Below, piece after piece: positions 1-59,199 of a stretch of 64,000 nt of DNA. The stretch spans positions 100,256,001 through 100,320,000 of the forward strand of contig NC_086097.1 of NCBI RefSeq assembly GCF_963921235.1, read 5' to 3'. The notes under the pieces were generated by a model. It worked only from the letters and a program-made list of their open reading frames with translations. It was not told where the DNA came from and searched no databases. Position 1 is the stretch's first letter. Every line of letters starts with the position of its first letter. This DNA comes from Mobula hypostoma (Eukaryota). Made by a program: the position numbers and the translations under genes.

Positions 1-272
1 GCTTCCCTTGCAGTGAGAGCTCACAAAAATCTTTAACAATGTTGAGATGTGCAAGCTGACAATCTAAACCTTAAATCTAATGTTTTCCAGATTTTTGTTG
101 GAGCATTGTTCAGTCAGTCTTTGACAATTATTAAAACTAAACTTCGTTCAATAGTGAGAGCATGACTTGTATCAAAATGTGTTCATTTTTTTGGTGGCAT
201 GGCGAAGGAGCAGGTAAGCTTGGGCTGAAAAGTGAACTGCTTATTCTCCCCCATTGACACTACCTTTCCCCA

Positions 273-4900: not shown

Positions 4901-5250
4901 GTGGATGTGGCAAAGTTGTTTCCCATGATGGGGGAGTCTAGTACGAGAGGGCATGACTTAAGGATTGAAGGGCGCCCATTCAGAACAGAAATGTGAAGTA
5001 ATTTTTTTAGTCAGAGGGTGGTGAATCTATGGAATTTGTTGCCACTGACAGCAGTGGAGGCTAAGTTGTTGGGTGTATTTAAGGCAGAGATTGATAGGTA
5101 TCTGAGTAGCCAGGGCATCAAAGGTTATGGTGAGAAGGCGGGGGAGTGGGACTAAATGGGAGAATGGATCAGCTCATGATAAAATGGTGGAGCAGACTCG
5201 ATGGGCCGAATGGCCAACTTCTGCTCCTTTGTATTATGGTCTTATGGTCT
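1940..5250 (+). mobile_element. CR1-clade LINE, near full ORF2 (APE endonuclease + RT) plus ORF1 esterase C-terminus; inactivated
   Basis: ORF1 end ...NAWLRDWCRGQGFRFLDNWDLFWGK...LHLNPKG. EN motifs LYLNAHSIRNK, IYRPPNS, VGDFN, GSDHN. RT motifs YLDFQKAFDKV, SGVPQGSVLGP, KFADD. Several stops and frameshifts. Tail tatggtcttatggtct. Confidence 0.95.
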
Positions 5251-13540: not shown

Positions 13541-14534
13541 AACAGTGCAGGAGTCAGAGATCAGAGTCAAAGTGACTGACAAATGGGAGTTCAGAGTCAC
13601 TCTTACAACCAGGCACCCTGCCACCCTCAGAATCCAACACCTTAGCCTTGCTTGCGTTAGAGTTGGCTAGTAGTAATGAAAGGTCTGCCAACTGCATTAT
13701 GTATAGGTGCTGGGTATTTCTAGCATTCAGCTGGAATCCAGCAACTGCTCCGATCTGTGTCCACTGCTCCAGCACTGTCTTCCTCCCTCTTGTCTATTCT
13801 CCTTCATTGTCTTCTTATATCCAGTGGCTCTGCAGCTAACCAGCCTTCACGCTCTCAGTCAGCACTTGTGTCCCCAGCCTGTCTCAGTCTCCTTCCAGTC
13901 ACAGGCTGTTCTCTCTCTGGTCTCTCCACCTCCTGTGTCTCAGCTGCTTAAAACATGCTTCCCACTTCTGGTGAATGATCAGCACCCCAACACTTCTGTT
14001 CTGTTTTTCTCTCCACACTCTCTTCAGCCTTCTCTACTTTTAGGTTGGCAATGTCTGAAGTTTCATGATCTTCCTGTTCTTGTGACACAGAAGACTATGG
14101 AATAGTTTCATGTCTAACTGCCAACTTGCTTCAGCCCTGAGGCAATAACATCTGATGTTTTCAGTCCCAGTTATTCATAAGCTCACTGCCCTGTACACTT
14201 AGATAGGTTGTCTGGATTTTTAATCCTGTGCTTGTTGTTTGCCTGAGCAGCCAAGGTGTATACCAGATGATTGTGATGATTGTGAGAGTTTCATTTTTTG
14301 GGAGGTCTTGCCTGATGTCTGTGGAGAACTGTGAAGTGCTGTAGTATAGATCCTGCACAGGTCTGATAATGTCCTGCTGTAACCCATGGGTTCTGTTGGG
14401 ACTGGTGCTGACTTCCATAATCTGTATCAAAGACTGCCAAATGTATAATATCTAAGCCTGTTGATGGTGCAATAATTAGAGGCAGTATGAGCTGTGAGAA
14501 GTTGCAGAGAGATCTGTACACGAGGGGTGAATTG

Positions 14535-16620
14535 ACCATAAGACCATAAGACAAAGGAGCAGAAGTAGGCCATTTGGCCCATCGAGTCTGCTCCGCCATT
14601 TTATCACGAGCTGATCCATTCTCCTATTTAGTCCCACTCCCCCACCTTCTCACCATAACCTTTGATGCCCTGGCTACTCAGATACCTATCAATCTCTGCC
14701 TTAAATACACCCAATGACTTGGCCTCCACTGCTGCCCATGGCAACAAATTCCATAGATTCACCACCCTCTGACTAAAAAAATTTCTTCGCATTTCTGTTC
14801 TGAAAGGGCATCCTTCAATCCTTAAGTCATGCCCTCTTGTGCTGGACTCCCCCATCATGGGAAACAACTTTGCCACATCCACTCTGTCCATGCCTTTTAA
14901 CATTCGAAATGTTTCTATGAGGTCTCCCCTCATTCTTCTAAACTCCAAGGAATACAGTCCAACAGCGGACAAATGTTCCTCATATGTTAACCCTCTCATT
15001 CCCAGAATCATTCTAGTGAATCTTCTCTGTACCCTCTCCAACGTCAGCACATCCTTTCTTAAATAAGGAGACCAAAACTGCCCACAGTACTCCAAGTGAG
15101 GTCTCACCAGTGCCTTATAGAGCCTCAACATCACATCCCTGCTCCTATACTCTATTCCTCTTGAAATGAATGTCAACATTGCATTCGCCTTCTTCACTAC
15201 TGACTCAACCTGGAGGTTAACTTTAAGGGTATCCTGTACGAGTACTCCCAAGTCCCGTTGCATCTCAGAACTTTGAATTCTTTCCCCATTTAAATAATAG
15301 TCTGCCCGTTTATTTTTTCTGCCAAAGTGCATAACCATACACTTTCCAACATTGTACTTCATTTGCCACTTCTCTGCCCATTCTTCCAATCTATCCAAGT
15401 CTCTCTGCAGACTCTCCATTTCCTCAGCACTACCGGCCCCTCCACCTATCTTCGTATCGTCAGCAAACTTAGCCACAAAGCCATCTATTCCATAATCCAA
15501 ATCGTTGATGTACAATGTAAAAAGAAGTGGCCCCAACATGGACCCCTGTGGAACATTACTGGTAACCAGCAGCCAACCAGAATAGGATCCCTTTATTCCC
15601 ACTCTCTGTTACCTGACAATCAGCCAACACTCTATCCACGTATGTAACTTTCCTGTAATTCCATGGGCTCTTATCTTGTTAAGTAGCCTCATGTGTGGCA
15701 CCTTGTTAAAGGCCTTCTGAAAATCCAAATATACAACATCCACTACATCTCCCTTGTCTAGCCTACTGGTAATTTCCTCAAAAAATTGTAATAGGTTTGT
15801 CAGGCAGGATTTTCCTTTAAGGAATCCATGCTGAGTTCTGCCTATCTTGTCATATGCCTCCAGGTACTCTGTAATCTCATCCTTGACAATCGACTCCAAC
15901 AACTTCCCAACCACCGATGTCAAGCTAACAGGTCTATAATTTCCTTTTTGCTTCCTTGCCCCCTTCTTAAATAGCGGAGTGACATTTGCAATCTTCCAGT
16001 CTTCCGGAACCATGCCAGAATCTATCGACTTTTGAAAGATCATCGCTAATGCCTCCGCAATCTCCACAGCTACTTCCTTCAGAACACGAGGGTGCATTCC
16101 ATCTGGTCGAGGAGATTTATCTACCTTTAGCCTATTCAGCTTCCTGAGTACTTTCTCTGTTGTAATTGTGACTGCGCACACTTCTCTTCCCTGCCACCCT
16201 TGAGTGTCCGGTATACTGCTGATGTCTTCCTCAGTGAAGACTGATGCAAAATACTCGTTCAGTTCCTCTGCCATCTCCTTATCTCCCATTACAATTTCTC
16301 CAGCATCATATTCTATCGGTCCTATATCTATTCTCACCTGTCTTTTACTCTTTATATACTTGAAAAAGCTTTTAGTATCCTGTTTGATATAATTTGCTAG
16401 CTTCCTTTCATAGTTAATCTTTTCTCTCTTAATGACCTTCTTGGTTTTCTTTTGTAAGGTTTTAAAAACTTCCCAATCCTCTGTCTTCCCACTAATTTTT
16501 GCTTCCTTGTATGCCCTCTCTTTTGCTTTAACTTTGGCTTTGACTTCTCTTGTCAACCACGGTTGCATCCTTTTTCCACTCGAAAATTTCTTCTTTTTTG
16601 GAATATACCTGTCTTGCACA
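14535..16620 (-). mobile_element. 5'-truncated young CR1 LINE, same family as 1940-5250; RT frame broken by one nonsense codon at about 15609
   Basis: ORFs 15609-16673 and 14628-15602 are in frame, separated by TAA where the + copy has AAA (K). The tail is (gaccataa)n on +. Confidence 0.95.
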
Positions 16621-18085: not shown

Positions 18086-18629
18086 GTACAGTATTCACTA
18101 GCAGATGTGCTGTTTTCTGAATCCCCAGGAACTTGCTGTCAACCCTTCATTTTTGTTTTGGTTCAACTTTGTGACCCCAGTCTGGATGGATTTTACTAAT
18201 GCACGTGAAAGAGCTCCTGTGAACCGTCGGTGTGCACCCTGTGCAATGTGCACATCTTCACAGTCGAGCATGGTAGTCTTAAGAATTAGAGTCTTATTGT
18301 GGCAATGGTGGGCTCACTCTTCCTGCTTGAGGTGGGTTACAATCTCCTGATGCATATTTCAACAACTACTGCACTCAGTTGTCATAGCTCAGCTAAGCAA
18401 AGGACTGCTACAAGGAGAGGGGAAACTCGAGGGACTGTAAGGGGCTGAACAGCTAGTAGAGCCGCAGTTCACAGGGTCAGTCCTGACCTGACCTCTGACA
18501 TTGTCCGTGTGGAGTTTACACCATCCCTCTATGACCCTCTGTGTTTTAACCAAATGCCCTGGATTCCGCACGGCCAAAAGGCATGCGGGGTTGTAATTGG
18601 CTGCTGTGAAGTTGTGTCGGTGAGTGGAA

Positions 18630-19520
18630 GAATAAAGTGGAATTGATGGGGATGCAGGGAGAATGGGATTAGTTTAAGTGGAATTAATGGGGATGCTGGG
18701 AGAACAGGATTAGTGTGGGATTAGTTTAAGTGGAAGTGATGGAGATGCAGGGAGAATGGGATTAGTGTGGAATTGATGGGTATGCAGGGAGAATGGGATT
18801 AGTGTGGAATTGATGGGGATGCAGGGAGAATGGAATTAGTGTGGGATTAGTTTAAATGGAATTGATGAGGATGCAGGGAGAACAGAATTAGTGTGGGATT
18901 AGTTTAAATGGAATTGATGGGGATGCAGGGAGAACGGAATTAGTGTGGGATTAGTTTAAGGGGAATTGATGGAGATGCAGGGAGAACGGGATTAGTGTAG
19001 GATTAGTTTAAATGGAATTGATGGGGATGCTGGGAGAACGGGATTAGTGTGGGATTAGTTTAAGGGGAATTGATGGGGATGCAGGGAGGACGGGATTAGT
19101 TTAAGGGGAATTGATGGGGATGCAGGGAGGACGGGATTAGTTTAAGGGGAATTGATGGGGATGCAGGGAGAATGGGATTAGTGTAGGATTAGTTTAAATG
19201 GAATTGATGGGGATGCTGGGAGAACGGGATTAGTTTAAGGGGAATTGATGGGGATGCAGGGAGAATGGGATTAGTTTAAGGGGAATTGATGGGGATGCAG
19301 GGAGAATGGGATTAGTTTAAGGGGAATTGATGGGGATGCAGGGAGAATGGGATTAGTGTAGGATTAGTTTAAATGGAATTGATGGGGATGCTGGGAGAAC
19401 AGGATTAGTGTGGGATTAGTTTAAGGGGAATTGATGGGGATGCAGGGAGGATGGGATTAGTTTAAGGGGAATTGATGGGGATGCAGGAAGAATGGGATTA
19501 GCGTGGGATTAGTTTAAGTG
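18630..19520 (+). repeat. G-rich minisatellite (about 36-52 bp variable unit) expanded from a SINE 3' region
   Basis: Unit ggaattgatggggatgcagggagaa(c/t)gggattag(tgtgggattag)tttaa. A SINE head and body lie at about 18440-18630 and a SINE/CR1-type tail (atggaccaaagggactgtt) follows. Confidence 0.9.
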
Positions 19521-19984
19521 GGCAATGGTTGACATGGAATCAATGGACCAAAGGGACTGTTGCCTTGGTTAACTTTCCACAGACTATTGTTGGTCAGGTG
19601 GACAGATGGACAGCTAAGGGTGTTGTGCTCCTAGTTAGAGCCCTCTCAGGCGAGGTGAAAGAGCTTCATTGGCACTCCTGGACAGCGGGCACAGAAGGCC
19701 AGCAGCTGTAAGGCAGGACAGGCTGCACCATTGACCTTTACTGCGGTGGGGGATCTGATCCCATCACTGCCTGGCTCCTCACCACAGTGGAAGGGAGGAG
19801 GCTGCAGTCAGATCAGCCCCAGTCTCATTGAGTGGCGAGGCAGAGTCAAAGGAACGAGTGGCCTTCTGCTCCGAATTCATTGGTCGGTGGCAGCGGGAAG
19901 AGTTGAGATGTTGGTCAATGCAGGCAGTCGCGGATCAAAAGCACGGACCACGCTGAATGACCTCACGAGGTCAGTAATCTTGGA

Positions 19985-21758: not shown

Positions 21759-22184
21759 TTCAGTGTCTTCAAGTTTTATATTTTTTTAAATCAGTTTAAT
21801 GTAGATGCCCGTGGTCAGTATTTGCACATTCAGGCTAAAATATGAACCTTTTACAAAGTGTGAAGATAAAGCAAAGTATTACTACGTTTAGCCTGTAGTT
21901 CAGTATCGCAGTCATCCCAAGTTTGATCATTGTCACCTCCCTGTGTATGACAGTGTTGTAGCAGTGTCATTAGAATCCTCACTGTTGGAGTTGGCTGTAG
22001 TTGACAGTTCAATTGCCTTTAACCACTCAGTTCACTTTGCAAAATTACACAAAGATTCCCGTCATTAATAACTGAAATTGCCTTTAAATTTCCTAATTAG
22101 TTACTGAAATATCCTGAGTTCCTATTTACCCGAAGGTTGTGCATTTACCAGATTTGATGAAAAAAAACAGTCAACTAAATGTTA

Positions 22185-22299
22185 ACAACAGGAATTCTGC
22201 AGATGCTGGAAATTCAAGCAACAGACATCAAAGTTGCTGGTGAACGCAGCAGGCTAGGCAGCATCTCTAGGAAGAGGTACAGGCAACTTTGATGTGTGA
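22185..22299. mobile_element. Internally collapsed Penelope-derived palindrome, probably within the DPF 3' UTR
   Basis: Left arm (acaggaattctgcagatgctgg...ggaagaggtaca) is joined directly to the end of the right arm (gcaactttgatgtgtg). Perfect 12-bp TSD aactaaatgtta at 22173-22184 and 22300-22311. Confidence 0.85.
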
Positions 22300-23829
22300 A
22301 ACTAAATGTTAGCTTGTTTGAAATTATAATGTCCAATTAAACAAAAGAATAATAGATAACTCGTGGGAGAGTGGGGCTGGGGTAATATTTCCAATCAGAG
22401 CACTGCTAGTCCCATTCCGTAGCTCTGTGAAACACTCGAGCCTCAGCTAACGTGGCTGTACGGAATGTAGTCAGAGTCTGAACAGTCAGTCGTCAATCCT
22501 GATCTTAATGTTGTACACTACAGAAACGGCCAGTGTTAACTTCAAACTTGAAAGCTTTACATTCAACAGCATTATTGGTTTTTTACATGCCTTCATGACC
22601 AACCTAAACAAGTTGGCAAGACTTTTTTTAGTCAGCTGTCTGTCAGTTTGTATTTTCCATTTAGACACTGCTGTAGAGAATAGTTGCTTCAGAGAAGGTC
22701 TAACACAAAACACCCGCTCGGCTCTGTTCTCGTACTTCACTGTCGCATTCCAACATCACTTCACTCCGTTCCAAAATAAGATGCCAGTATATTCTATGAT
22801 AAGGTGAAAGATAATTCCATTATATTAGACTTTGGTGAGAGTATCAATGTTTTTGTGGTTAATACGTGGTGTTAATAATCAAGAATATTAGCATATCTGT
22901 ATCAGTATTTTATAGAAATCATCAGATCTAATACCAGTGTAGAAATTGTGTGTGCTTGTCTGTTTACAGTTCAGATGCTCGAGGTAGTCTATAAGTGTAC
23001 TTTCTTGTCACTGTAACTAAGGAACTGGGAATTATTGTGGTATGTTGATGCTGCACTGTCAGAGATGTGCTATCTTTTGAGTGAAATGTTACACCAAACC
23101 CGTCGGCCTATTTGGGTAAAGACCCTGTGACACTATTTTGAGTAAGAAGGTGGGTTAACCTGGTTGACATCAAGCCTTTCACCAATCTCACTAAACATCT
23201 ATTACTTTTATATATTACTCTGCAGATTTCAAAGTTACAACTGTGGCTTCCAGTAGTTCACAAGCCAGGGGCACTGAGATTGTGAATGACACTACAGAGA
23301 AAAAAAACAGACTGGGTTTTGTTTTTAATTTATTTCTGAATATGCCCCACGAGAGCTCGTGGTATTTTGGAGTTAGCCCAACAATTAGGCTTCATGGTTC
23401 TCCCCAGCCAGCCACAGGCCTCTTCTTGTGTTGACAAAGTTAAATATCAATGCACACCTGTTACCGGGGTGTGTTCATTCAGGAACATCCCCATTGCCTT
23501 TTGTCTTTAATAGGAAGTCCCAATGAGAATTCACATTGTCTTATTTTGCAGGTAAGGGGAGGTTTTGTTTAACTGCTTGATGCATTTCCTTCCCTGTATT
23601 CGTGCATCCAAGCTGCCATTCCCAACACTAACCCCCTTTCTTTGCAGTCTAATCTCCAAAGGGCCCACTTCCTTTGTCTGCATGCAGTGGGTCCCAGTCC
23701 AGTGACCTTCAGGCAGGATATGAAGCCACAGAAAGAATCACAGCCAAGCTCACTACGTCCACTTTACCTTTTGAATAGAAGGAAATGAGCTGTCTGAACA
23801 AATCAACGACACCAGCGTTATCTCTTTAT

Positions 23830-24070: not shown

Positions 24071-26202
24071 TGTCCTGATGTTTTTCATGCAGCTTTGGAG
24101 ACCTGGTCACAGGTCATTTATTCATCAGTAATCATTGTCATTACAGCTCTTCTAGGGATTAATAACTGGGCAAAATTGACAGTGTAACTTACTCAGTATC
24201 CATTTACAGATTCAATGTGTACAGTAATTGGGATCATTTCACAGGTCCTATGATGGTCAAAGTTGAGTTTATTGTCACGTGCACAAGTGCATCTGAGCAA
24301 TAGACGTACCTGTATGGCATCACAGGTACGTAACGTCAGACAAAGTCATATAATACAGGGTAATGTCCCGACGAGCTTTACAAGTGAAATTAAAGGCAGA
24401 CCTACAGGATCAATGCCTCAAAGAAAGTGGCTGGACATGCTGACCTTCTGCCTGAGCTACCGGTGTGTAGACCCCTAACACTGTCTCCTCTGCAGGCAAT
24501 GTTCAACTGCACTGACCGTAAGCAGCTTAACTGGCTGAAACAACCACTGGTTGTCAGTCGATGGACCCAGCATCATTCTGTTCCATTCAATTTCCTTGTT
24601 TACTTCGCAATATAGTGCAGAGTACAGTGCCCAACAACCCCACAGCCCTGATTAGCCCTAACCTAATCACAGGACAATTTACAATGACCAGTTGACCTAC
24701 CCGGTGGGAGCAGACGAGCGCCCGGGGAAAACCCACACGTTCCACAGGGCGCTGGAGTTGAACTCTGAACTCAGGAGCGGCCAGAGCTGTAACAGCATCG
24801 TGCTGACCATTATCCTTACCCGGTGCTCGGCTTATCCCACCTGGAACATACAAGTGTGAAACTTCTCTCTGCTTATCAGGTCTGCTGCGTTCCCTGGGTC
24901 CCTCCTGCCTGCTGCCCCCTTGTAAGTGTATCTTGGTTGGAGCTGTTATACGTGGTAAACCGATTTCTGAATCTCCATTACCCAGCAAGTTAGCTTAGTG
25001 AGCAGGAATTTAAAATAGACTGCCTTTGGAGTGATTGGGTTCTCGGTGTACTCGAATGATTATCATACGTTTATCGTGTGGCCAGATCATCACATGCTCC
25101 CCACTGCCCCCTCCCCATACACTGCTGGGGTGCCAGAGAAGTTGGTAGTTCATTTCACGCTGGGAGGTGAGAGAGTCACTGCAGTACCACAGCTGAAAGG
25201 AGTTCTTCCTGCTTTAGATGGAAGGATGGTTGGTATATGGCAGGTGGTTATAGATTCACCTCTGCTGTGGAGTAGAGCAAACTTTCAGCTCGAAATTGTA
25301 TCACATAGGCTCTGCTTACCACTTTCTATAGTACTGAATATGCTACTTATCCAGCTATGTAATGGTAAAAGAAAACTTGTGTCTTATACTCAACGGACAG
25401 AACAATACTGTTAAACTGCACCTTGTAGAATTTAACTGCTCCTCCTGCAAAATTCTGCCTTTGGCAAAAACAATACAAACAAGAGTGAAAGGTTCAGGGA
25501 GTGTTTGTGGAATCGTATTCAGTCCATTAGTTATATTTACTTAAAGATATTTGTAGAGTCACTTGTTCGATAATCAATAGGTTTTGCAACACTTAGGCCA
25601 ATTTTTTGAGAGTTTGCTTTAGTTTTCTGGGGAGGGAAAGGAAAGAGAGAAGAAAGGACTGATTTAGAATGATCCATTACGTAATTAATCAAAGAAGTTT
25701 TGTGAATCACAAGGAAATATGAGATACTAACCCTGAATGGCTGAGGAATACACGTATTCTGATCGGATGGTGTTCTGAGAGGCAAAAGATGAGATGGAAT
25801 TTCCTAGTTTCTTGGGAGTTAAGTTTTGAAGTGTGGAAGTCTAAATTTCTCTGGGGGGGTGTAGGGTGGAGGGTGTAAGTTTTTAAGGTGAGTGAGCAGG
25901 CATGCAGACTGGGGGGGCTGACATCTCCCACCTCCTGTGCAGGTTACAAACATGGCAGCCTGCCTTTACACGGGGTCAGAACCAGCAGTTTGAAAGGGAG
26001 GATAACTGCCACTGATCTTGTGCTACATAGTTGCCACTTTCAATTTATTCTTGTCCAAGCTGCAACTCTCTCCCTTGGAATGAGGTTTGTAAACTTTTAC
26101 CATCACCCTAGTCACCAGTTCCCACTGAGGACCGGACTGCGCAGACAGTGGTAATCACTCCTCTGACCACGTTGGGCAGTATCAGATGTCCAGTACAACT
26201 GA

Positions 26203-27135
26203 AAGGCTTCCTGAGTACTCCAGGAGCAGACACAGACACAGAGGCTTCCTGAGTACACCAGGGGCAGACACAGACACAGAGGCTTCCTGAGTACACCAGG
26301 ACCAGACACAGACACAGAGGCTTCCTGAGTACACCAGGGGCAGACACAGAGGCTTCCTGAGTACACCAGGGGCAGACACAGAGGCTTCCTGAGTACACCA
26401 GGGGCAGACACAGACACAGAGGCTTCCTGAGTACACCAGGGGCAGACACAGACACAGAGGCTTCCTGAGTACACCAGGACCAGACACAGACACAGAGGCT
26501 TCCTGAGTACTCCAGGAGCAGACACAGACACAGAGGCTTCCTGAGTACACCAGGGGCAGACACAGACACAGAGGCTTCCTGAGTACACCAGGGGCAGACA
26601 CAGACACAGAGGCTTCCTGAGTACACCAGGGGCAGACACAGAGGCTTCCTGAGTACACCAGGGGCAGACACAGAGGCTTCCTGAGTACACCAGGGGCAGA
26701 CACAGAGGCTTCCTGAGTACTCCAGGAGCAGACACAGACACAGAGGCTTCCTGAGTACACCAGGACCAGACACAGACACAGAGGCTTCCTGAGTACACCA
26801 GGGGCAGACACAGACACAGAGGCTTCCTGAGTACTCCAGGAGCAGACACAGACACAGAGGCTTCCTGAGTACACCAGGACCAGACACAGACACAGAGGCT
26901 TCCTGAGTACACCAGGGGCAGACACAGACACAGAGGCTTCCTGAGTACACCAGGGGCAGACACAGAGGCTTCCTGAGTACTCCAGGAGCAGACACAGACA
27001 CAGAGGCTTCCTGAGTACACCAGGGGCAGACACAGAGGCTTCCTGAGTACACCAGGGGCAGACACAGAGGCTTCCTGAGTACTCCAGGAGCAGACACAGA
27101 CACAGAGGCCTCTGAGTACACCAGGGGCAGACACA
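26203..27135 (+). repeat. 38/32-bp minisatellite, about 26 units
   Basis: Unit gaggcttcctgagtacaccaggggcagacaca(gacaca), with variants tccaggag and ccaggacc. Confidence 0.97.
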
Positions 27136-28070
27136 ACCTTGGGGTCAGCCAGACCCCACTACTTCAGAGGCAAACACCCACCCACAGAGGGCTGACACAC
27201 CCTCCCCTGGAGTCGGACACTCAGTCCCGGGAAAATCACCCCGGAGCAGATAGATACCCTCTGCTGGTTCAGACACTCTTCCCAGAGCAGACACCCACCA
27301 CCAAGGCAGATAGATACTTCCCCTGGGCCAGATAGCCTCCCCATTCACAGATCCAGCCCCTTCTCTCAGCAGTGATTGACTGTGCTGGGGCCCGGTCCCA
27401 AAGCTTGGGAAGGGCCTGGTGCGGGACTGCTGAGTGAAGTGTGCATTGTGGCATCACTGCAGAGAGGGGAGATTAGAACATGGTAGCTGAGCTGGTGTGG
27501 GCATTTGGAGCCACAGGTTTACACAGCTGCAGAGTTGGTGATGTTGCTGCCTGCCCAGTGACCGACTAGACCTATCTCTGTACGTGGTTTGATGAGTCTG
27601 CGGTACATCACACTGCACTTTATCAAAGGTCTCGGTTGGCTTTACTAGCATATCATTTCCAAAATAAACATTAATGCTGCTATTCCTATGATTGCTGCTC
27701 ACAGACTCTGTAACTAAGGAGCCGGTTTGTCAATATAGAGCCTCAAACCATACTAAAAGCATAATTTAAGATGTTTTGTTTTTCTAAATTCTGTGACAAG
27801 TTTCCATTTGTATGTTTTTTTGTATGTTAACTATTTTTGTATAGCTTCACATTTGTAACCAACATATCCAATGGAATAAAAAGCGATGGAGTTGGTGACA
27901 TTGGACTTTGCATACTTGTAGTGTGCCTGTTGTTAGCCCAGGGGGCGCCATTTCAACATTTGTCTTCTGTTCCAGTAATCCCAGAAGCTAATTTAAAAAT
28001 TAACTTCATGCACCTCTTTCTTTTAACAGCATTGAGTCCATGATTTATAAATGATCAATTGTAATACAAA

Positions 28071-28320
28071 CAACAGGAATTCTGCAGATGCTGGAAATTC
28101 AAGCAACATACATCAAAGTTGCTGGTGAACGCAGCAGGCCAGGCAGCATCTATAGGAAGAGGTGCAGTCGACGTTTCAGGCCGAGACCCTTCGTCAAATC
28201 CCTTACTCACTCTTCCTTCAGTTAGTCCTGACGAAGGGTCTCGGCCTGAAACGTCGACTGCACCTCTTCCTATAGATGCTGCCTGGCCTGCTGCGTTCAC
28301 CAGCAACTTTGATGTATGGT
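28071..28320 (+). mobile_element. Young palindromic Penelope-derived retroposon with 14-bp TSD
   Basis: Near-perfect inverted arms; TSD aattgtaatacaaa at 28057-28070 and 28321-28334. Confidence 0.9.
28223..28260 (+). ncRNA. Minimal type I hammerhead ribozyme motif; predicted cleavage after 28255
   Basis: UAGUC-CUGACGA-A-GGGU(CUCG)GCCU-GAAA-CG-UC^GACUG: full catalytic core, stem I UAGUC/GACUG, 4-bp stem II, palindromic ACGU helix III. Confidence 0.8.
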
Positions 28321-30000
28321 AATTGTAATACAAATTGTGTTAAAACTGTAGAATACACAAGCTGCATTCACAGGAAAACATTAACATTTTTTACAAGGAC
28401 AAACACAATTATAAGAAATAAACAAAGTCCATTTTAATTCAGAGTAATCAAAGTAGTTATGATTAGAGATATGCAGTTGGTTCAAGAACTTGAATGGTTG
28501 ATGGGAAGTAGCTATTTTATGAACTGAAAACTGCCTGTCTCTGATAAAACCTTAAACTTCTGCCATTTCCGCAGGCTGAGAATGCCTAGCTTCCTTTCGA
28601 GGCCAATGGGTCCTAAGGCTGCAGGGGCAAAAATCTGGAGTGACAGAAAATCTGCTGGAAGAACTCAATGTGCTGAGCCGCATCTGTAAGGGGAAAGGAG
28701 TTGTTGATATTTTTGGGTCAAAACTCTGCCATCTCCCAGCTCAAGAGACCCAGGTCCAATCCTGGAGTTTCCATGCTCTCCCTGTGCCCAAATGAACTTC
28801 CTCCAGGTGCTCCGGGTTCCTCCTGTATCCCAGGATGTGTAGGTCAGTTGGTTACTGTGAATTACCCCTGGTGTAGGTGGGTGTCAGGAGAACTGGGGTT
28901 GATCGGAATGTGTGAGGTAAAAGGTGTGGAAGGGATATAACTGGGAATGGGACCAATGAGTTAGCTCACTAGTTGTCACTCACTATACTCCAAAATCTGA
29001 CGCCAACCTCTGGGGAGCTCATATTGTACAGTGTAGACAAGGATACTCGGCTTTAATACCATATCTTTTATCACAGGAGTCGTAGAGGTGTGCAGCCTAA
29101 AATCAGCTCACCGTCTCCATAACAACCTTTTTGCTCATTATCCTGCGGTAGGACCATAGCTTATTCCTTGCCTATTTTAGTATCTGTTTAAATACAGTGG
29201 TTGTATCTGACTTCACCACTTCCTGTGTTAGCACATTTACAGCTATCAGCCACTCCCTGTGTGCGTAAAAAAATAACTTGCCATCAGATATTCCTTTGTA
29301 ATTGAGAATGTAAGATGTCTTAGTGCAGATATATCAGGCCCTGGTGAGACTGAACCCAGAGTAATGCCTACTTCATATCACCTTATACCATTTGGGTGTC
29401 AAACTATATGCAGCCTCCTCACAATTTTCCCGAGCTCCCATTTACGATACCCTAAAATTTCACTCCAGGACTGTCACACTGTCCCCATGTACTGAACTTG
29501 AGGGTAACTGGAATCTGGTACAACCCTCTGCTAATCCCTGGTCCCTTGCATTGTCCTCTGCTGTTCTGTAGCATATCTTAGAGCCCTACAACTATCCTGG
29601 GGTCTATTGTTAGTCAGGTCCCACACCATATTCTGGGATTTCACAAGTGGACTTCAATAGCCTGCCAGTGGTCGGGTGGTCTGGAAGGTTAGATCACATG
29701 AGATCCAGGGTGATCTAGCATATTGGATGCAGAATTGGCTTGGTAGTAAGAACCAGGGGGTGACAGGGAAGTGTTATTTATCAGATTGGAGGCCTGTGAT
29801 CAGTTGTGTGCTGGGTCCATTGTTGTTTGTCATCTGCGTTAATGATTTAGATGAGAATGTAGCTGGCACGGTTAGTAAGTTTGGGATGGCACTGTAACTG
29901 GTGGTACCGTGGACAGTGAAGAAAGTTATCTTAGATTACAACGGGATCTTGATTAACTGGCCGAATGGGCTGAGGAATGACAGATGGAATTTAATTCAGA

Positions 30001-30222
30001 CAACGCACACAAAATGCTGGAGGAACTCAGCTGGCCAGGCAGCATCGATGGAAAAGAGTAAACAGTCGACATTTCAGGCCGAGACCCTTCATCAGGACTG
30101 ATCTTGGCCCAAAACGACAACTGTTTACTCTTTTCCATAGATGCTGCCTGGCCAGCTGAGTTCCTCCAGCATTTTGTGTGTGCTGCTTTGGATTTCCAGC
30201 GTCTGCAGAGTTTCTGGTGTTT
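30001..30222. mobile_element. Palindromic Penelope-derived element, older subfamily
   Basis: Inverted arms cacacaaaatgctggaggaactcagc...ggaaaagagtaaacag / ctgtttactcttttcc...gagttcctccagcattttgtgtg; degenerate TSD (ttaattcagacaa / tttactcggacaa). Confidence 0.85.
30063..30100 (-). ncRNA. Minimal type I hammerhead ribozyme motif
   Basis: Minus strand reads CAGUC-CUGAUGA-AGGGUCUCGGCCU-GAAA-UG-UC^GACUG, with a perfect 5-bp stem I. Confidence 0.72.
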
Positions 30223-33374: not shown

Positions 33375-34880
33375 CAGTCATTTTGAGAGAACTAGAATAT
33401 AAATGCAAGAAAGTAATGCCGAGGCTCTATAAGGCACTGGTCCGACCACACTTGGTGTATTGTGAGCAGTTTTAGTCCCCTTATTGAAGAATAGATGTGC
33501 TGGCACTGGAGGGAGTCCACAGGAGGTTCACGAGAATGAGCCTGGAAATGAAAGGGTTAAAATATGAGGAGCATTTGATGGCTCTGGGCTCTGGCCCCTT
33601 CCAATCAAGATGGCACCTGCACACAATGCTCCTTCGGTCAACAACTTCTGGATAGATCATGAAACAATATATTTCACTTCCTCTATGTCTTTTACATTTG
33701 ATTTTCATTTTACATTTGTAAATGTGTTTCTGGAACTGTTAGGGTTTGTGATTTGCAGTTTGGGTATTTCAGTGCTCTGCACTCTCAGAGAGGATTCTGT
33801 AAGGCAGAGGCAGCATGCAGGAACCTCGTGGCGAGAAGGATGCGGGACAGGGTGTGGGCCGACGTTTGACTCCATTTTGCCAATTAAAGCTTCCATTGTT
33901 CATCAATTAAAGCGAGGAGGGAGATTGAAATATCGAGGTGAACACGGAAGGTGAGCACTGGTTGACTGCCTTTTGATCGCTGGTGGGATCACTCTGTTAT
34001 GAAGAGAGAGACTGCCTTTAGACCACTGGTGAGATTGCTCTGCTGTGGGAGGGGAGACTGCCTTTAGATCACTGGTGAGATTGCTCTGCTGTGGGAGGAG
34101 AGACTGCCTTTAGATCACTGGTGAGATTGCTCTGCTGTGGGAGGGGAGACTGCCTTTAGATCACTAGAGAATCACTCTGCTATTGGAGAGGGAAAAGCCT
34201 GCTTCTGTACCCAGAGAATGTTACCCAGGGTTTTCTGTGTTCTGGATATGGACCTGGACTAAAGACATTTTTTCGGTCTTATAGTTCTTTATATTCTGTG
34301 TTATCACCTGATCCTTCTCATTTTTTTCTGTGTGGGGGAGAGGGTGTTAGGGTTTGATGTGCCTGTTCCATTTTTGTGAGGGAAGGAGGGATTTGAGGGC
34401 TATGATTGTTCTGCCATTCTTTTCTTTCTTGGTTCTGTGGCTATCTAGAGAAGAAGAATTTCAGAGTTGTATACCTTGATAATAAATAAATGAACCTTTA
34501 AACCTTTGTATTTGTTGGAGTTTAGAAGAATGAAGGAGGATCTCATAGAAATCTACCAAATATTGAAAGATCTTGATTGAGTGGACTTGAGAGGATGTTT
34601 CCTACAGTGGGGGAGTCTAGGACCAGAAGATATAACCTCAGAAAGATGAGGAGGAATTTCTTTAGCCACAGAGTGGTGAATCTGTGGAATTCATTGCCAT
34701 AGACAGTTGTGGAGGCCAAGTCATTAGGTATATTTAAAGCAGAGTTTGATAGGTTCTTGTTTGCTAAGGGCATCAAAGGTTATGAGAAGAAGGTAGGAGA
34801 ATGGGGTTGAGGGGGAAAATAAATCAGCCATGATGGAATGTCAGAGCAGACTCGATGGGCTGAATGGTTTAATTATGTTC
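33375..34880 (+). mobile_element. CR1 3' end interrupted by a ~920-bp non-coding element (about 33590-34508) that contains a 46-bp tandem x4 (about 34005-34190)
   Basis: CR1 sequence gatggctctgggc|tgta...ggagtttagaag is split. The insert starts near caagatggc and ends aataaataaatgaacctttaaaccttt. Confidence 0.8.
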
Positions 34881-40090: not shown

Positions 40091-40289
40091 TAACCCATCA
40101 ACCCATTCTGGTGAATCTTTGCTGCACTGCCTTAGGGACATTCTTCCCTCCCTCCTGCGCTCAAATCCTCTCATTGTAAAAATGTACAGTACAAACACTT
40201 GGAAGGTGAACTGTAGGCATCCTTCTGTTCTGGGCTGCGGGATGCTTTGGTTAATGTCTTTGTAGGAGGCAGGAGGTGGGGTCCCTTCC

Positions 40290-41095
40290 CAGCTTCCACC
40301 TCCCTCTCCCCATCCCCCTCCCCGTCCTCCTCTCCTTCCCCCTCCCCCTCCTTGTCCTCCTCTTCTTCCCCTCCCCCTCCCCATCCTCCTCTCCTTCTCC
40401 CTCCCCCTCCCCGTCCTCCTCTCCTTCCCCCTCCCCCTTCCTGTCTTCCTCTCCTTCCCCTCCCCTCCCCTCCCTGTCCTCCTCTTCTCCCCCCCCTCCC
40501 CATCCTCCTCTCCTTCTCCCTCCCCCTCCCCGTCCTCCTCTCCTTCCCCCTCCCCCTTCCTGTCCTCCTCTCCTTCCCCTCCCCTCCCCCTCCCCTCCTC
40601 CTCTCCTCCCCCCGTCCCCCCCTGTCCTCTTCTTCTTCCACCTCCCCCTCCCCGTCCTCCTCTCCTTCCCCCTCCCCCTCCCCGTCCTCCTCTTCTTCCC
40701 CTCCCCCTCCCCGTCGTCCTCTCCTTCCCCCTCCCCCTCCCCGCCGTCCTCTCCTTCCCCCTCCCCGCCCCCCTCTCCTTCCCCCTCCCCCTCCCCGTCC
40801 TCCTCTCCTTCCCCCTCCCCCTCCCCGTCCTCCTCTTCTTCCCCTCCCCCTCCCCGTCGTCCTCTCCTTCCCCCTCCCCCTCCCCGTCGTCCTCTCCTTC
40901 CCCCTCTCCTTCCCCCTCCCCCTCCCCGTCCTCCTCTCCTTCCCCCTCCCCCTCCCTGTCCTCCTCTCCTTCCCGTCCCCTCCCCCTCCTCCCCTCCTTC
41001 TCCCCCCCTCCCCTTCCCTCTCCTTCCCCCTCCCCCTCCCCGTCCTCCTCTCCTTCTCCTCCCCGTCCCCGTCCTCCTCCCCATCCCCCTCCCCA
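40290..41095 (+). repeat. About 800-bp polypyrimidine/polypurine low-complexity tandem repeat (unit about 30 bp)
   Basis: (tccttccccctccccctccccgtcctcctc)n; the Pro-rich and Gly/Arg-rich ORFs here are artefacts. Confidence 0.97.
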
Positions 41096-41879
41096 CCACT
41101 GGCACAGAGTGTCGGCAGAGTGTGCCTGCAGCTACTCTCCCAGGGCGCTCCAAGCACCCCAGCCAAACCTGGGACCTCTGCAGCACGAAGGACAAGGAAG
41201 TGGTAACCACCAGCACCCTGACCTAGAAATATTTCATTGGTTCTTCATCATCACTGGGCCAAAATCCTGCAAACTCCCTCTCACCACCACCTCCTGAAGG
41301 ACAACATGGGATGGGCAATAAATGCTGACACCATCAGTGACCCCTGAAAAATGACTAATTTTAAAAGAATATCCCCAAACCTAATCCAACAGTGGGATTA
41401 TAATTGTAGATTTACAGACTGCCACAACCTTAATCCTCCCCATGCTTCCCACAGCACTTCCTGATGAGATGGGTGGAGCTGACAACTCTACAAAGGACCA
41501 TATAAACTGGATAGAGTGCAAAGAAGATTTACAAGAAGGGCCTGAATTATAGGGAGGGGTTAAGTGTGCTGAAACTTTATTCCTTAAAGCATAGAAGGAT
41601 TTTCGAATTGACAGAGAGGTGTGTAAAATTATGAGGGTGAACTTGCTAAGAAAAGAACTGAAATACAGAGAGCAGAGGTTCAGGGAGGGAAACATTCACA
41701 CAGAGGGTGGTGGGTGTATGGGGAAAACTGACAGAGGAAGTGGTTGAGGCAGGTAAAGTAATAGCATTTAAAAGATATTTAAACAGGTACATGGATAGGA
41801 AAGGCTTAGAGGGATATGGGCCAAATACTAGCAAATGGGACTGTAGGGCATGTTTCAGAGCTGTATTACTCTGCAACTA

Positions 41880-44800
41880 AAATTTTCAATATACTGAAAG
41901 ACTTCACGAAATGTGTTTGAACAGCATCTCAAAGATTCTGAACTGAAGCCTGTGGATATCCAACAAAGAACTTATAATGGAGAAAAGATGACTCCTGTGG
42001 AAATGACATTTGTAGCAGTCATGTACAATAACCAACAAACCACATTGGGCTTGTATGTGGTAAAAACAGGAGGGGCCAGCATTTTAGTGTTGTGACTGGC
42101 TGAGTCACTTACAACTTGATTGGAGATCCATCCACCATTTGTCTGCCACATCCCCTGCAACAGTGTCAACTGAAAGTGACTTGAGAAAGTACTGGATGGT
42201 GCCATGACTGTCTCATGCTGTACATCATGAACCCTTGTCCAACAGAGGGCAAAAGGGTGTTTGTGCCAACCTCTGCCGCAGGTTGGAAAGCATATCGGGC
42301 CAAGGAAGAATTGTTCTGCTCAGAGGAATCAGGAAAGTGATGAAAGCGATGGTCTGACTACAACATTTTTGTAGGCAGCACATCTGAGAAAGCCTCTGAT
42401 ATGTTAATCAGGCAGTTCCTTGCGAAATGCGGCTTGGTTTTGAGCTGAAAGAGAGGTCAAGGAGCTTCAGGAAAGTTACAACCATTCATCTATTGTGAGT
42501 AAAAGGAGCCAGAATCTACTCTGCGAGCTTTAAGGTTATTGCATGAACTTCTAGTAGGAGACAAAAAGCTGCTTGTAAAAGTAGACCAAAGCCCAGCTGG
42601 ATGAATGGAAGGCCAAAAATAAAGGAGTCAATGGAGATATGAAAACAGGGGATTTTTGAGATGATGTTGTGGATGAAGAAACCAGGAGTGATCAGATCGA
42701 AAGGGAGCAATAGAAGGATTAATAGGAAAATAGCAACACACACAAAAGCTGGAGGAACTCAGCTGGCCGTGCAGCATCTAGGGAAAAGAGTACAGTCGAC
42801 GTTTCAGGCTGAGACCCTTCTTCGGGACTGGCATTAGCAGCGGACCAATCAACTGGCAGAGAGACAGAGAGAGAGTTTTGCATAGGTCAGTGAGAAGAGT
42901 TTAAAAAAAGAACATTTCGGGGGGTCTTGGCGCATTAGCAACGAACCAATCGATTCGCAATTTATTAGCAGGTGCAAATAAAAGTAAAGCAGGGTCAAAG
43001 CAGAGCGGCGATTGTGTGAGGGGACCAGTGTAGGAGTGGCAACTTGAGGCTTTGGTGAGGAGGCGCAGGTAAGCAGCAAGCAAGGCTTTTGTAGTGGTGA
43101 ATAAAAAGTCACTAATTAAATAAAGTAGGGATGATGCAGGATCAGGTGATGTGCTGTAGCTGCATGATGTGGGAGATAGTGACCCTTTGTGCCTAATGAC
43201 CACATCTGCAGCAAGTGTTGGCTGCTCGAGGAGCTCAGGGTCAAAGTTAATGACCTGGAATCTGAGCTTCAGACACTGTGGCACAGCAGGGAGACTTATC
43301 CATGAGATAAGGATGTATAGAGTTGGGAGTGATGTATTAACATGGATAGAGGATTGGTTAACTAATAGAAAGCAGAGAGCTGGGATACATGGATTCTTTG
43401 GTTGGCAATCAGTGGTGAGTGGTGTGCCACAGGGGTCGGTGCTGGGCCTGCAACTGTTCATGATATACATTAATGATCTAGAAGAGGGGACCAAGTGTCC
43501 TGTATCTAAGTTTGCTAATGATGCTAAATTGTGTGGAAAAGCAAATTGTGTAGAAGATACGGAGAGACTGCAGAAGAGATATAGATAGGTTAAGTGAGTG
43601 CGCAAGGGTCTGGCAGATGGATTACAATGTTGGTAAATGCGAGGTCATCCACTTTGGAAGGAAAAATGGAAGATCAGATTATTATTTAAATAGTAAAAGA
43701 TCGCAGTGTGCTGCTGTGCAGAGGGACTTGGGAGTGCTTGTGCATGAATCACAAAAGGTTAGCTTGCAGGTGCCAGCAGGCCATCAAGAAGGCAAATGGA
43801 AGGTTAGCCTTCATTGCTAAAGGGATTGAATTTAAAAGCAGGGAGGTAATGCTGCAACTGTACAGGGTACTGGTGAGACCACAATTGGAGTACTAAGTGC
43901 AGTTCTGGTCTCCTTACTTGAGGAAGGATATACTGGCTTTGGAGGCAGTGCAGAGGAGGTTCACCAGGTTGATTCCAGAGACGAGGGGATTAGACTGTGA
44001 GGAGAGATTGAGTCGCCTGGGACTGTACTCGCTGGAATTCAGAAGAAAGAGAGGAGATCTTATAGAAACATATAAATTTATGAAAGGGATAGATAAGTTA
44101 GAGGCAGGAAAGTAGGTGAGACTAGAACTCAGGGACATAGCCTCAAGATTCAGGGAGTAGATTTAGGATGGAGATGTGGTTGAACTGCTTTTCCCAGAGA
44201 GTGGTGAATCTGTGGAATTCTCTACCCAATGAAGCAGTGAAGGCTATCTCAGTAAATATATTTAAGACAAGGTTGGACAGATTTCTGCATAGTTGGGGAA
44301 TTGAGGGTTATGGGGAAAAGGCAGGTAGGTGGAGATGAGTCCATGGTCAGATCAGCCATGATCTTATTGAATGGCAGAGCAGGCTCCTATTTCTTATGTT
44401 CTTATGCTGTGCCTGTTGAGTTCCTCCAGCTTTTTGTATATGTGGCTTGCATTTCCAATATCTGCAGATTTTCTTGTGTTTGTGTTAATAAGAGAATATT
44501 CCAGCAAACTAAATGCACCTTCCCAAGAACAAGATGCACATCCTAGACAGAAGAAAATGGAAAAGAAAGAGGAGGATGATGTAAGTGCTGTGGAATTGGA
44601 AGAGGATAAACAAGACCTAATTTCTTGAGAAATTAGCAAATTCAGGGATACTGACAAGAAACTAGAAGAATAAATAGGAAAGCGAGAAAGAGAAAGGCGT
44701 GAAAGAGGGAATTTATGTGAGAAAGAAAAAGAGCGGCAATGGGAGTGTGAGTGGGATTGGGACTGCGAGCGAGACCGTGATAGGGAACATGAGAGAACCA

Positions 44801-45471
44801 AGGATAAAGAAAGGGAGCGAGACTAAGAAAAGGATAAAGAGAGAGAAAGAAGCTGAGACTGGGGGAAAAGCAACGATTGAAGTAGATCCAGAGAGAAAAG
44901 CTGAGGAAAAGGTGTCCTGAGCTGTTAGAACCACTTCCTGCTGTCTCAGAGTCAACTCCTACAAGCTCCACAGAGGAGGCTCCAGAACCTGAGATTGTTT
45001 CACAGCCGCACGTCTCACCTGCCAAGCAGAGTGACCTTCCTAGCCAGGAAGGACATTAACCCACAAGAGTAAGAAAACCTCCACAGCAATTAAATCTCAA
45101 TGCTTGAATAGGTCGATTTATAGATTTCTATGTTGTGTGTGTCTGTATATAGTAGTTGTATTATATAGTATACTGTGTATATAGTTGAGATACATTCTAT
45201 ATTGAGTTAGATTTTATAGTTAAGCAGGGAGGAGTGTTGTGTAATTAATATTTGAGTAATATTGTAAATATATTGTTTGAGTAAGCATTCTTTAATGTTT
45301 ACATAATGTATTGTGGTTTATATGTAAAAGTATGTAAATGGCATACATTATTACACCACCATGTAATAAATATGCACCCTGCTTAAAATAAAAATGAAGT
45401 TAGCCTCACATTTCAGACTCTCTGTTTGTTCCTTTAAAATACTTTTTATGTTGCAGAATTGCAAAACAACA
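41880..45471 (+). mobile_element. Fragmented Gypsy remnant(s): protease-region piece (about 41880-42210) and 3' end with PPT + LTR (45235-45471); younger elements are nested between
   Basis: RTYNGEKMTPV...LGLYVVKTGG (Gypsy pol-like); PPT aagcagggaggag at 45222-45234; LTR TGTTGT...ACAACA with AATAAA. Confidence 0.65.
42830..44405 (+). mobile_element. Internally deleted CR1 (5' UTR and ORF1 start fused to RT/3' end) lying between the arms of a Penelope-derived palindrome (about 42733-42830 and 44405-44480)
   Basis: VMCCSCMMWE...HICSKCWLLEELRVKVNDLESELQTL (ORF1 zinc-finger/zipper-like), then SGVPQGSVLG, KFAND; tail ttcttatgttcttatg. Confidence 0.8.
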
Positions 45472-46107
45472 TTGACAAGGAAGAGATTCTGTTTTACTCT
45501 TGACTGGCTGGAAGAACCACAATTCCTTAGGTGCAGAGAGTGCAAGGATGAAACTGCTGATATCTCAACAGCTGCTTTCAGTTGAAATCAAGTCTGTCTT
45601 TCCAATCTCTCCACATAACTAATATCTTCCATTCCAGGCAACATCCAGGCGAATCTTCTCTGCATGACCACATCATTCCTCGAATATGGTGACCAGAACT
45701 GTATGCAATAGCCCCAGTGTGGTCTAGTTAACGTTTTGTAAAGTTGTGACAAAGCGTCCCAACTCTTATATTAATGCTCCTCCCTACCCCATGAAAGTAC
45801 ACATGATTGATGTTTCCTTCACCACTCTAATGACTTGTGTTGACAATTTCAGAGAACTATGGACTTGAACCCTCAGAGTCTCTCTGTTCATCACATTCCT
45901 CAATTACAATTTACTGTACACTTTTTTACTCTATTTTACATCCCAACATGCATCATCTTGGACCTGTCAGGAGTAAATTCCGTTTCCTTTGACTACCTTA
46001 TTCGCTCTCTACACCACCAGCTTTTGTGCCATCCACATACTTACTAATCACACCTCTTACATTCTCATCCAGTCCAATAGTAAATGTATCAAACTTCAGC
46101 AGTCCTA

Positions 46108-46330
46108 ACACCGATCCCTGGGTACAGCACGAGTCACTGACATCCAATCAGAAACACCGATCCCTGGGTACAGCACGAGTCACTGACATCCAATCAGAAA
46201 CACCGATCCCTGGGTACAGCACGAGTCACTGACATCCAATCAGAAACACCGATCCCTGGGTACAGCACGAGTCACTGACATCCAATCAGAAACACCGATC
46301 CCTGCGGTACACCACTGGTCACTGAACCTC
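46108..46330 (+). repeat. 46-bp tandem repeat (4 near-identical units plus a parental copy) inside an antisense CR1 RT remnant
   Basis: acaccgatccctgggtacagcacgagtcactgacatccaatcagaa; the final unit ccgatccctgcggtacaccactggtcac is the reverse complement of VTSGVPQGS. Confidence 0.9.
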
Positions 46331-47154
46331 AATCAGAGGATTATGCTCTCACCACTACCCTCTGTCAAGACAATTTTGGATCCAATTAGCTCAATTGCTA
46401 TGCAGGATATTGTCAAAACTTTTACTAGCCTACTCTCCCATCCTCACCTGCATCCACCTATCCCCTCCCAGCTCTTAGTTCACCTTTCAACCCTTTGTTC
46501 CAGCTATCTCCCCTCTTTCTTCAGTACAGATGAAGGGTGCCTACCTGACTGTCCCTTTCCTTCCACAGGTGCTGCCTGACATGCTGAGTTCCTCCAGCTC
46601 TTTGTCTGATGTCTCCTTCAGGAAACACTTGCATAAAATATCCTTTTAGATAGGGACATGACCATGTGTTGGGCTGAAGGGCCTATTCTAAAATCCATAC
46701 TGTGCCCAGGGTGTATATCTGTTGAGGACTAGTGGTCTCTGGTCAGGCAATGTTATATGCACTCTAAGGTAGATGGAAGAGAACCAAGTGGACTGTTTTA
46801 AATACAGACAGACAACGTAGAGCAGAGAACAAGTTTGTACATCTGGCAGGAGCAAAAGATGTTGGGAATGGTGCGGGTGCAGTGCTTGAGAGGGGTGTGG
46901 GACAGGATAGGAGGCAGAGAAGGAGTGCTGGGGTGGATATAGACACACCCAGCCCTGAGACCACAGGCAAGGTCATTTTATTCCAAACAATTGGTTTGTT
47001 GATCATTAAAGAATGTCTCTCTGGTGCTTCCTGCTCTCTCCCCCCTTTCCAACCACAATTCCCCTCTCCCTTTCCCCTTCCCCCTCTCAGTCCACAGCAA
47101 GATCCACAGCAGAATCAGGTTTATCATCACTCATCAGGTTTATCAATCACCACG

Positions 47155-48697: not shown

Positions 48698-49054
48698 TTC
48701 CCTGTATGTCATAATTACTCCCTCACATTGTGGGATGGGTGCAAGATTTTAAATAAATTCTACAGTACTGTGCAAAAGTCTTAATCACCTTTGCTAACTA
48801 CATGTTCAAACTTTTGCACAACACCATAGTTCCCAAACACACTTCAAAACCATTTCCAAATACACTGAGGTTTTGTGAGGCACTGTAGAAACAGAAGTTA
48901 TTTTCTTTTGATAATCAGTCTGAAACTTTTGACATCTTTAGAAAACACCTTGCAGGTAAGCCCAAGGAATAGATGGCAGAAAGTAAACTGTACCTCTTAA
49001 AACTGCAGCCAGGTTAATAACATCAGAATCTGTTGAACAGAGGAATCACAGGAG

Positions 49055-49421
49055 TCCACCAGATTTAACCAAGAGTTTATTTTTAATTTGAAAGCAAAAT
49101 TACAGGAAGTTCATCAAAACAAGTGTTTTCAGCAGCTTCAAGCTTCCCAGTTAACTCTTGAAGGGGAAGTGCAGAGTTGGGGGAAGAGGGCCAATTTCCA
49201 CCAGGGTTCACTACAACTATGGCAAAATTAACCCTCCTCTCAGAAGCTCATGAAAATTTAAACTGAGATTCTTTGACTCCAACTGGTGTCCAATGGGGCT
49301 GGCGATTGTTGCGACAGTCACTTACTCATCGCCAGGCCGGGGACTGGGAAACACTCAAATCCGATTTATCCTTTGGAAACATACTTCCTGCCACATCCCG
49401 ATCTCAGCGTAAACCCAGAAC
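49055..49421 (-). other. crip1: crip1-like exon 5 (non-coding 3' UTR), predicted
   Basis: Minus-strand acceptor ctcctctccttcccag|G at 49421; AATAAA at 49076-49081 with an adjacent ATTAAA and a GU-rich tract downstream. It is the best non-repeat candidate after the exon 4 donor. Confidence 0.6.
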
Positions 49422-59129: not shown

Positions 59130-59199
59130 ACCGAAAGAAGAAGTAGTAAGAGATTCGATGGAAAGAGATTTCAAATCTCATACTATCTCTTCTTTCAGT

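Follow-up and report, generated by a model that had tools for sequence, protein, structure and literature searches.

In the genome of Mobula hypostoma, a stretch of 64,000 nucleotides (hereafter the window) carries at positions 28057-28334 a small non-coding insertion with a hammerhead-like motif. The question raised by this locus is whether such tiny copies form a non-autonomous, retrozyme-like family of their own, as the initial annotation proposed, or are the remains of a larger element that encodes its own means of transposition. The evidence set out below argues for the second answer: the tiny copies are very probably the 5'-truncated 3' ends, often arranged as inverted pairs, of an autonomous Neptune-type Penelope-like element (PLE), each likely the product of its own aborted insertion.

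The insertion lies between two exact 14-bp target-site duplications (TSDs) at 28057-28070 and 28321-28334, and the last bases of the left one also match the end of the tail. Element positions are counted from C3 of the hammerhead, taken as 0 (window position 28228). An inverted arm on the minus strand (28067-28196) spans element positions +130 to +1, stops inside the hammerhead core and is 98% identical to L071, the natural long copy used for comparison; it includes the PLE tail, about 36-40 nt (28067-28106), which is the same sequence that opens the reading frame of L078, a long copy described below. The direct arm on the plus strand (28194-28318, element -34 to +90) is tailless and shares 3 nt with the inverted arm. 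Immediately before helix I, at 28204-28225 on the plus strand, a branch-point-like heptamer, a pyrimidine tract and an AG resemble a 3' splice site and also an initiator, either of which would be a putative function; these letters are retained in diverged sister subfamilies, and in the histogram of arm ends the 5' ends of the family pile up at 28220-28235. The predicted minimal type I hammerhead (28223-28260, plus strand) has the layout given in PMC4209133: helix I (28223-28227 with 28256-28260), CUGACGA (28228-28234) and a bulged A, helix II (28236-28247), GAAA (28248-28251), and then CG and UC, with the cut predicted after 28255, where the initial annotation had placed it.

Judged by its letters, the motif is likely the minimal hammerhead with an ACGU palindrome that had been recognized, since the core nucleotides and helices I and II all have the expected form. 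Pairing of the helices holds in 115 of 117 cells (98.3%) across 13 distinct intact copies, compared with at most 46% in slid controls, a figure partly built in because the rows were picked by the hammerhead descriptor. There are only two double changes, both from one copy (L087), and the remaining changes are between G-U and G-C; the L087 motif itself (L087:1995-2034) is a sister-subfamily hammerhead whose two compensatory changes in helix I are known from this single copy. When the commonest letter among 41 old arms is compared with the young copy, none of 12 core and none of eight helix I columns is changed, and helix II is changed at one of eight columns (G-U to G-C), so that 0/20 core and helix I columns stand against 18/63 downstream (Fisher p 0.005). 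The earlier expectation that the core is conserved beyond its flanks thus holds for the lineage consensus but fails copy by copy, agreement being 0.87 in the core and 0.88 in the flanks; this equal decay points to selection on master elements and not on inserted copies. Among 33 diverged ORF ends, from sister subfamilies of the same genome, the motif was found downstream in nine, some of which belong to neighbouring young copies. Folding predictions disfavour the active structure, both for the monomer (-7.7 vs -11.7) and for the dimer (-12.9 vs -31.7), which would accord with published minimal hammerheads, whose activity is low or depends on protein. The motif has unremarkable folding z-scores (-0.03 to -0.69), and an Rfam search returned no hammerhead family at E<=5.

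All seven related insertions previously listed for the window are present, together with an eighth family locus, a remnant. They comprise an old inverted pair at 271-520 (75-80% identity), with both arms tailed, damaged cores and no TSD found; a tailed inverted arm (+130 to about +22) with a short direct piece at 22173-22311, listed earlier at 22185, which has a TSD and lacks the hammerhead core; the 28057-28334 copy; an older inverted pair at 29993-30222, whose minus strand carries an intact core at 30095; a single tailless arm (-4 to +95) with a damaged core on the minus strand at 42732-42829; the additional old, tailed arm remnant (+52 to +130) on the plus strand at 44405-44482; a single tailless arm (-6 to +92) on the plus strand between 12-bp TSDs at 57276-57395, with an intact core at 57291; and an inverted pair at 59062-59340 with two intact cores (59124 minus, 59205 plus). 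The five intact motifs that had been reported are confirmed, their cores and flanking helices starting at 28228+, 30095-, 57291+, 59124- and 59205+, as are three exact TSDs, of 12 bp (22173/22300), 14 bp (28057/28321) and 12 bp (57276/57384); a search at the four other sites tried in the window found none. The sequence at 30005-30180 is a sub-threshold match to the Rfam family MIR8670, and fold-backs of this kind could mimic or give rise to small-RNA hairpins; identity with MIR8670 itself was rejected, as the score of 87.5 bits against a cut-off of 150 reflects the long hairpin only.

A loose CUGAnGA..GAAA pattern matches 17 times against 6.7 expected. The minimal-hammerhead descriptor has 23 matches in three sampled regions (864 kb in total), all of them in this PLE family, and 0-1 matches in each of five shuffles. 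The density of roughly one copy per 10 kb first suggested is borne out by 70 loci with a 3' end in the 864 kb, or about one per 12 kb, and the family occupies about 4% of the sampled DNA (37,384 of 864,000 bases). Exact counts over the 3.48 Gb of the genome (about 3.5 Gb) give 41,774 matches to a 35-nt motif and 81,439 to a CpG-tolerant 32-nt motif, with no match to reversed-motif controls; extrapolation from the 864 kb suggests some 280,000 loci with a 3' end genome-wide.

The source of these copies is found by following the direct arm, as copies matching this arm alone continue upstream into a reverse transcriptase (RT) plus GIY-YIG frame, behind which the arm sits at a distance of 300 nt, the RT being joined to GIY-YIG through a zinc linker. 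A Penelope origin had been claimed, and a search for an autonomous PLE linked to the arm did recover one: L078 is a complete unit of 3.5 kb, in which an unbroken frame of 1042 aa lies between two direct pLTRs with hammerheads 3512 bp apart, and a probable TSD of 12-13 bp has one mismatch. The frame runs in the order RT, CX4CXXC, GIY-YIG; Pfam scores for RVT_1 (22.3, cut-off 29.6) and GIY-YIG (18.2, cut-off 22.6) are in that order, both below the curated cut-offs. Among 8000 sequences scored, 794 are homologues at E<=1e-20, the best named one being a bamboo-shark protein (72%), and many of the homologues listed carry PF00078 and some also PF01541. The tail corresponds to the first codons of the ORF and in L078 is present only at the junction of the 5' pLTR with the ORF. 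A single ORF with RT and C-terminal GIY-YIG, pLTRs, 5' truncation and an optional tail are the features of an EN+ Penelope-like element, and the CX4CXXC motif, shared with Nematis, would make it of Neptune type; CX2-5CxxC between RT and EN is the Neptune/Nematis motif (PMC8557442), and only Neptune and Poseidon were found in the vertebrates sampled in a recent preprint (bioRxiv 10.64898/2026.07.22.740005). Of the 20 copies fetched, several other long ones have open frames of 750-1040 aa and are 98-99% alike, in keeping with the recent mobility that had been supposed.

Whether the tiny copies derive from this element one by one, or from short masters of their own, was assessed on a sample of arms taken from the 864 kb, from the 100 first-listed places of one anchor search and from 50 of the first 100 listed places of a second. 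All anchors lie at or after +28, so that longer 5' ends are not selected for. An arm was kept only if it had at least 84% identity, reached +75 and began no later than +60, which leaves 222 (17 of them running off their locus), with ends that are BLAST ends, accurate to a few bases. Pairs whose second arm is very short are scored as singles (at least six such cases were seen). Inverted pLTRs, part of the original description, are represented by 48 inverted pairs of 158 to 1416 bp. If short hammerhead-bearing masters, palindromic or single, were transcribed in a SINE- or retrozyme-like manner, with the PLE protein mobilizing them in trans, the copies should have come from a few fixed forms. Such a family is favoured by the 128 of 222 arms that begin within 60 nt of the core, by the clustering of 5' ends, and by published precedents: in a rotifer, other sequence was mobilized by pLTRs acting in cis (PMC3846280), and vertebrate retrozymes have been traced to pLTRs (bioRxiv 10.64898/2026.07.22.740005). 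However, arm-to-arm junctions differ in all 48 sampled pairs, and 34 nt across the junction of the 28057-28334 copy have one match in the whole genome, the copy itself; lengths form a continuum of about 130-1900 bp in 18 loci, a series that reaches the 3.5 kb unit, and 65 of the 222 arms reach the ORF; no head-to-tail arrays were seen among the 23 descriptor matches in 864 kb. The palindrome would moreover bury the core, as 11 of its 12 bases in the 28057-28334 copy are predicted to pair with the inverted arm in a 90-bp duplex, so that a read-through transcript would form an extended duplex. The sample did not contain the many copies of a single fixed short master that mark a SINE or MITE, and no tRNA gene was found in the window. 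The non-autonomous, retrozyme-like reading is thus not supported and a true short-master family is improbable, although 48 pairs are too few to exclude rare re-amplified short masters. One locus (L212:1475-2015) holds short head-to-tail units of a pLTR end and an ORF start, from which a retrozyme-like array could perhaps arise.

Reading the copies as truncated ends of the PLE leaves the arrangement of their ends to be explained. Of the 222 arms, 111 have a short 3' end and 109 a tailed one, the two classes being separated by about 36 nt, and two arms end in between. Exactly one tail is present in 46 of 48 pairs, none in two and two in no pair, an excess of one-tailed pairs that is far from the binomial expectation at 0.5 (p 4e-12; among single arms, 65 of 126 are tailed). 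The old pair at 271-520, with its two tails, is an exception and counts against a one-tail mechanism. Of 29 young pairs, 28 lie between exact TSDs of 12-17 bp, compared with 0/29 in swapped-flank controls, and these TSDs are 68% AT; an exact TSD of at least 10 bp was found in only 20 of 56 young single arms, which counts against priming from both ends. Within pairs, the ends of the two arms correlate (rho 0.59, n=46), lying within 15 nt of each other in 26 of 46 pairs as compared with 14 expected, and the arms overlap by 0-4 nt at 27 of 48 junctions. Subfamily agreement between the arms of a pair is 161 of 179 vs 60% after shuffling; the gap vanishes among the youngest pairs (93% vs 91%), and the agreement therefore does not demonstrate that both arms were copied from one shared RNA molecule.

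The positions of the 5' ends bear on the template. Of 190 arms at risk, 57 end at -8..+7 (16 nt, 1.9% per nt), the next two 16-nt bins hold 0.85 and 0.76%, and most bins beyond -57 hold 0.1-0.2%. Genome-wide end counts, for which mismatched upstream letters were required, give 353 at -8, 2,115 at -4 and 2,362 at -2 out of 81,439, and 206 at +24, 388 at the cut site (+28) and 119 at +31 out of 64,160; 233 at +3 and 220 at +11 were counted against estimated denominators of about 42,000-50,000. After correction for detection, these amount to about 3.5% at -8, 10% at -4 and 5% at -2, and to 0.8% at +24, 1.4% at +28 and 0.4% at +31, with about 1.3% at +3 and 1.1% at +11 on the rough denominators. 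Purine-rich inverted arms inflate the estimate for -4, probably by a factor of two, so that its range is 5-10%; in the sample, 10 of 222 arms end there. A peak at +3 in the sample (eight ends) was not borne out by the genome count. These figures largely refute hammerhead-cleaved RNA as the main template. Were the tiny copies reverse transcripts of such RNA, ends at +28 should dominate; there is a slight excess (4 of 210 arms, and 388 genome matches against the 119 and 206 of its neighbours), but ends at +28 are no commoner than those at +3 or +11, about half of the 100 listed +28 matches fit, by eye, upstream microhomology with the element, and 158 of 222 arms retain the entire hammerhead. This route is accordingly highly improbable.

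The pile-up at the hammerhead edge could have two causes, which seem about equally likely. The template RNA could begin at about -8 to -2, at a start site in the upstream pLTR or at a 3' splice-site cut, in which case RT that starts near the beginning of the ORF, at the tail signal, would run off the RNA end and give copies of 100-135 nt; the chance of this is put at somewhat below even. It would account for the peak at A-4 in an initiator-like context, for the excess of genome estimates at -8, -4 and -2 over those at +3 to +31, for upstream letters that differ at all 30 loci fetched that begin at -4, for the tendency of both arms to end together, for the retained pyrimidine tract and AG, and for the tail of L078 lying only at its 5' pLTR-ORF junction. 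The tract and AG before helix I recall the intron of D. virilis, which ends at helix I (PMC4209133; PMC2377424). On the other hand, no consistent extra, cap-copied G was present among the 21 single arms listed, no shared upstream exon or spliced copy was seen in the 30 loci, the 3' UTR has no clear GT donor, and the peak is broad. Alternatively, RT may stall, or cDNA may anneal or fold back, at a hairpin at -15..+10 in which the pyrimidine tract would pair with the core, and the first cDNA could then have primed its own copying to give the inverted arm; this too falls a little short of an even chance. Folded in context, the sequence is predicted to adopt this hairpin as its minimum-energy structure, arms in pairs show the pile-up more strongly (36/78) than single arms do (21/112), the 0-4 nt overlap at 27 junctions fits an annealing step, and self-priming has been proposed for PLE palindromes (PMC3846280). 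Nevertheless, single arms with clean TSDs start at the same place, and self-priming alone gives no fixed-site tailless end beside an intact TSD. A smaller second cluster of 5' ends at -126 to -131 (7 of 85 at risk; L178, L180, L182, L134 and others) could be a start some 120 nt upstream of the hammerhead, as in D. virilis, or could reflect an edge in the subfamily alignment. At six loci (L221, L225, L234, L238, L241 and L242), a few core-matching bases precede the -4 start, which suggests a short re-jump on the template.

Two-ended priming on uncleaved RNA would fit the one-tail rule, the correlation between arm ends and the scarcity of ends at the cut site. The protein of a Poseidon-clade PLE cuts and extends both strands in vitro and is a predicted dimer, two RT start sites bound the tail of the element, and hammerhead cleavage is dispensable in vitro (PMC11167929). 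In the proposed sequence of events, the endonuclease would cut both target strands about 14 bp apart, and both free ends would prime reverse transcription on uncleaved element RNA, one starting at the tail site and the other at the short site, one per strand. Both cDNAs would end prematurely, with the 5' edge of the hammerhead as the commonest stopping point, and would be joined head to head with an overlap of 0-4 nt. The hammerhead would be maintained by selection on master elements only and decay like its flanks in dead copies. In the most specific version, both strands would be primed on a single uncleaved RNA by a dimeric protein, with one subunit at each start site and hence exactly one tail per pair; this RNA would begin at the 5' edge of the hammerhead (through a start site or a splice-acceptor cut), and run-off from the 5' pLTR-ORF junction would mass-produce ribozyme-headed copies of 100-135 nt. 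This version is tentative and on balance rather unlikely; if true, the copies would be fossils of the PLE mechanism, and the hammerhead would stand at the head of the mRNA, gating its translation or processing, and would not serve to make the insertion template.

Much of this resembles what has been described for other elements. EN+ PLE units of the Neptune clade (PMC8557442) likewise have a single RT and GIY-YIG frame with a CX2-5CxxC linker, heavy 5' truncation, partial tandem pLTRs, an inverted 5'-truncated copy, and a tail of 30-40 bp that is often at one end only; unlike those units, the family here has very many copies below 300 bp, and its TSDs are mostly unique, AT-rich and 12-17 bp long, whereas microsatellite targets have been linked to Neptune. 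Metazoan PLE hammerheads (PMC4209133) share the CUGAnGA/GAAA/UH core, an unpaired nucleotide before helix II, a palindromic 15.2-16.2, a 5-bp helix I, and nearby motifs on opposite strands, but helix II here has 4 bp with G-U pairs, as compared with 7-8 bp in schistosome motifs, and the 41,774-81,439 near-exact motifs exceed the 4,000 of coelacanth and 9,000 of Xenopus. The Anolis Poseidon element PAc (PMC11167929), although of another clade, also has a tail that is ORF-start sequence, two classes of 3' end, AT-rich targets and no sign of cleaved RNA as template; its first ATG lies inside helix II, whereas the first in-frame ATG here lies 88 nt after C3. Non-LTR retrozymes (PMC7229834; bioRxiv 10.64898/2026.07.22.740005) are also short, non-coding, pLTR-related hammerhead sequences, but form head-to-tail arrays with at least two hammerheads, while the copies here are dispersed, head to head or single, each with its own TSD.

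Minimal hammerheads are already published for PLEs of fish, coelacanth, frog and reptile (PMC4209133), and inverted pLTRs, a tail often at one end and truncation have been described (PMC8557442, PMC3846280). The family is very abundant and recently active, and is otherwise ordinary PLE biology. No open-access description of it was found, and Repbase, Dfam or the supplements of PMC4209133 or the 2026 preprint may hold one; the open-access search likewise found no paper on a one-tail ratio or a 5' pile-up, neither of which is reported for PAc in the accessible text of PMC11167929, and a word search of 10.1101/2025.06.08.657570 gave no matches. Its copies would be mislabelled as a SINE, a MITE or a miRNA hairpin. 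The value of the family is statistical: being young, with frames still intact and near-identical ends in the tens of thousands, it makes it possible to test how PLEs form inverted pLTRs and tails and what their hammerhead does. What the 2024 work found in vitro has its in vivo counterparts here in the one-tail rule, in the correlation between arm ends and in the near-absence of ends at the cut site.

None of the records listed as holding the element is RNA. A near-identical element including the ORF (L071:2090-5660) occurs in contigs labelled organisms A and B (runs X1, X4, X5 and X8), and two such runs have contigs in which the end of the tail is connected with the start of the ORF, as a tandem or circular form would be. 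Four contig sets of uncertain kind, from two studies, cover all 30 bins of the element and show loose ends at the 3' sites +130 and +93..95, such sets being uninformative on expression, start sites or cleavage; a 306-nt skip ending at -4 in contig sets has no GT-AG ends. The window also holds other repeats. Two 2-kb copies of a LINE-type RT (3284-5249 and 14534-16499) lie 9.3 kb apart in inverted orientation and are 95% alike. Minisatellites are found at 7479-10220 (unit about 49 bp), 18612-19553 (41/52 bp), 26123-27144 (32/38 bp), 33964-34193 (about 46 bp), 40188-41300 (12-30 bp) and 46107-46336 (46 bp), and several of these arrays yield long stop-free frames. Finally, an open stretch of 520 aa at 47003-48565 matches RVT_1 and then ALKBH8_N, and belongs to a LINE family distinct from the others in the window.
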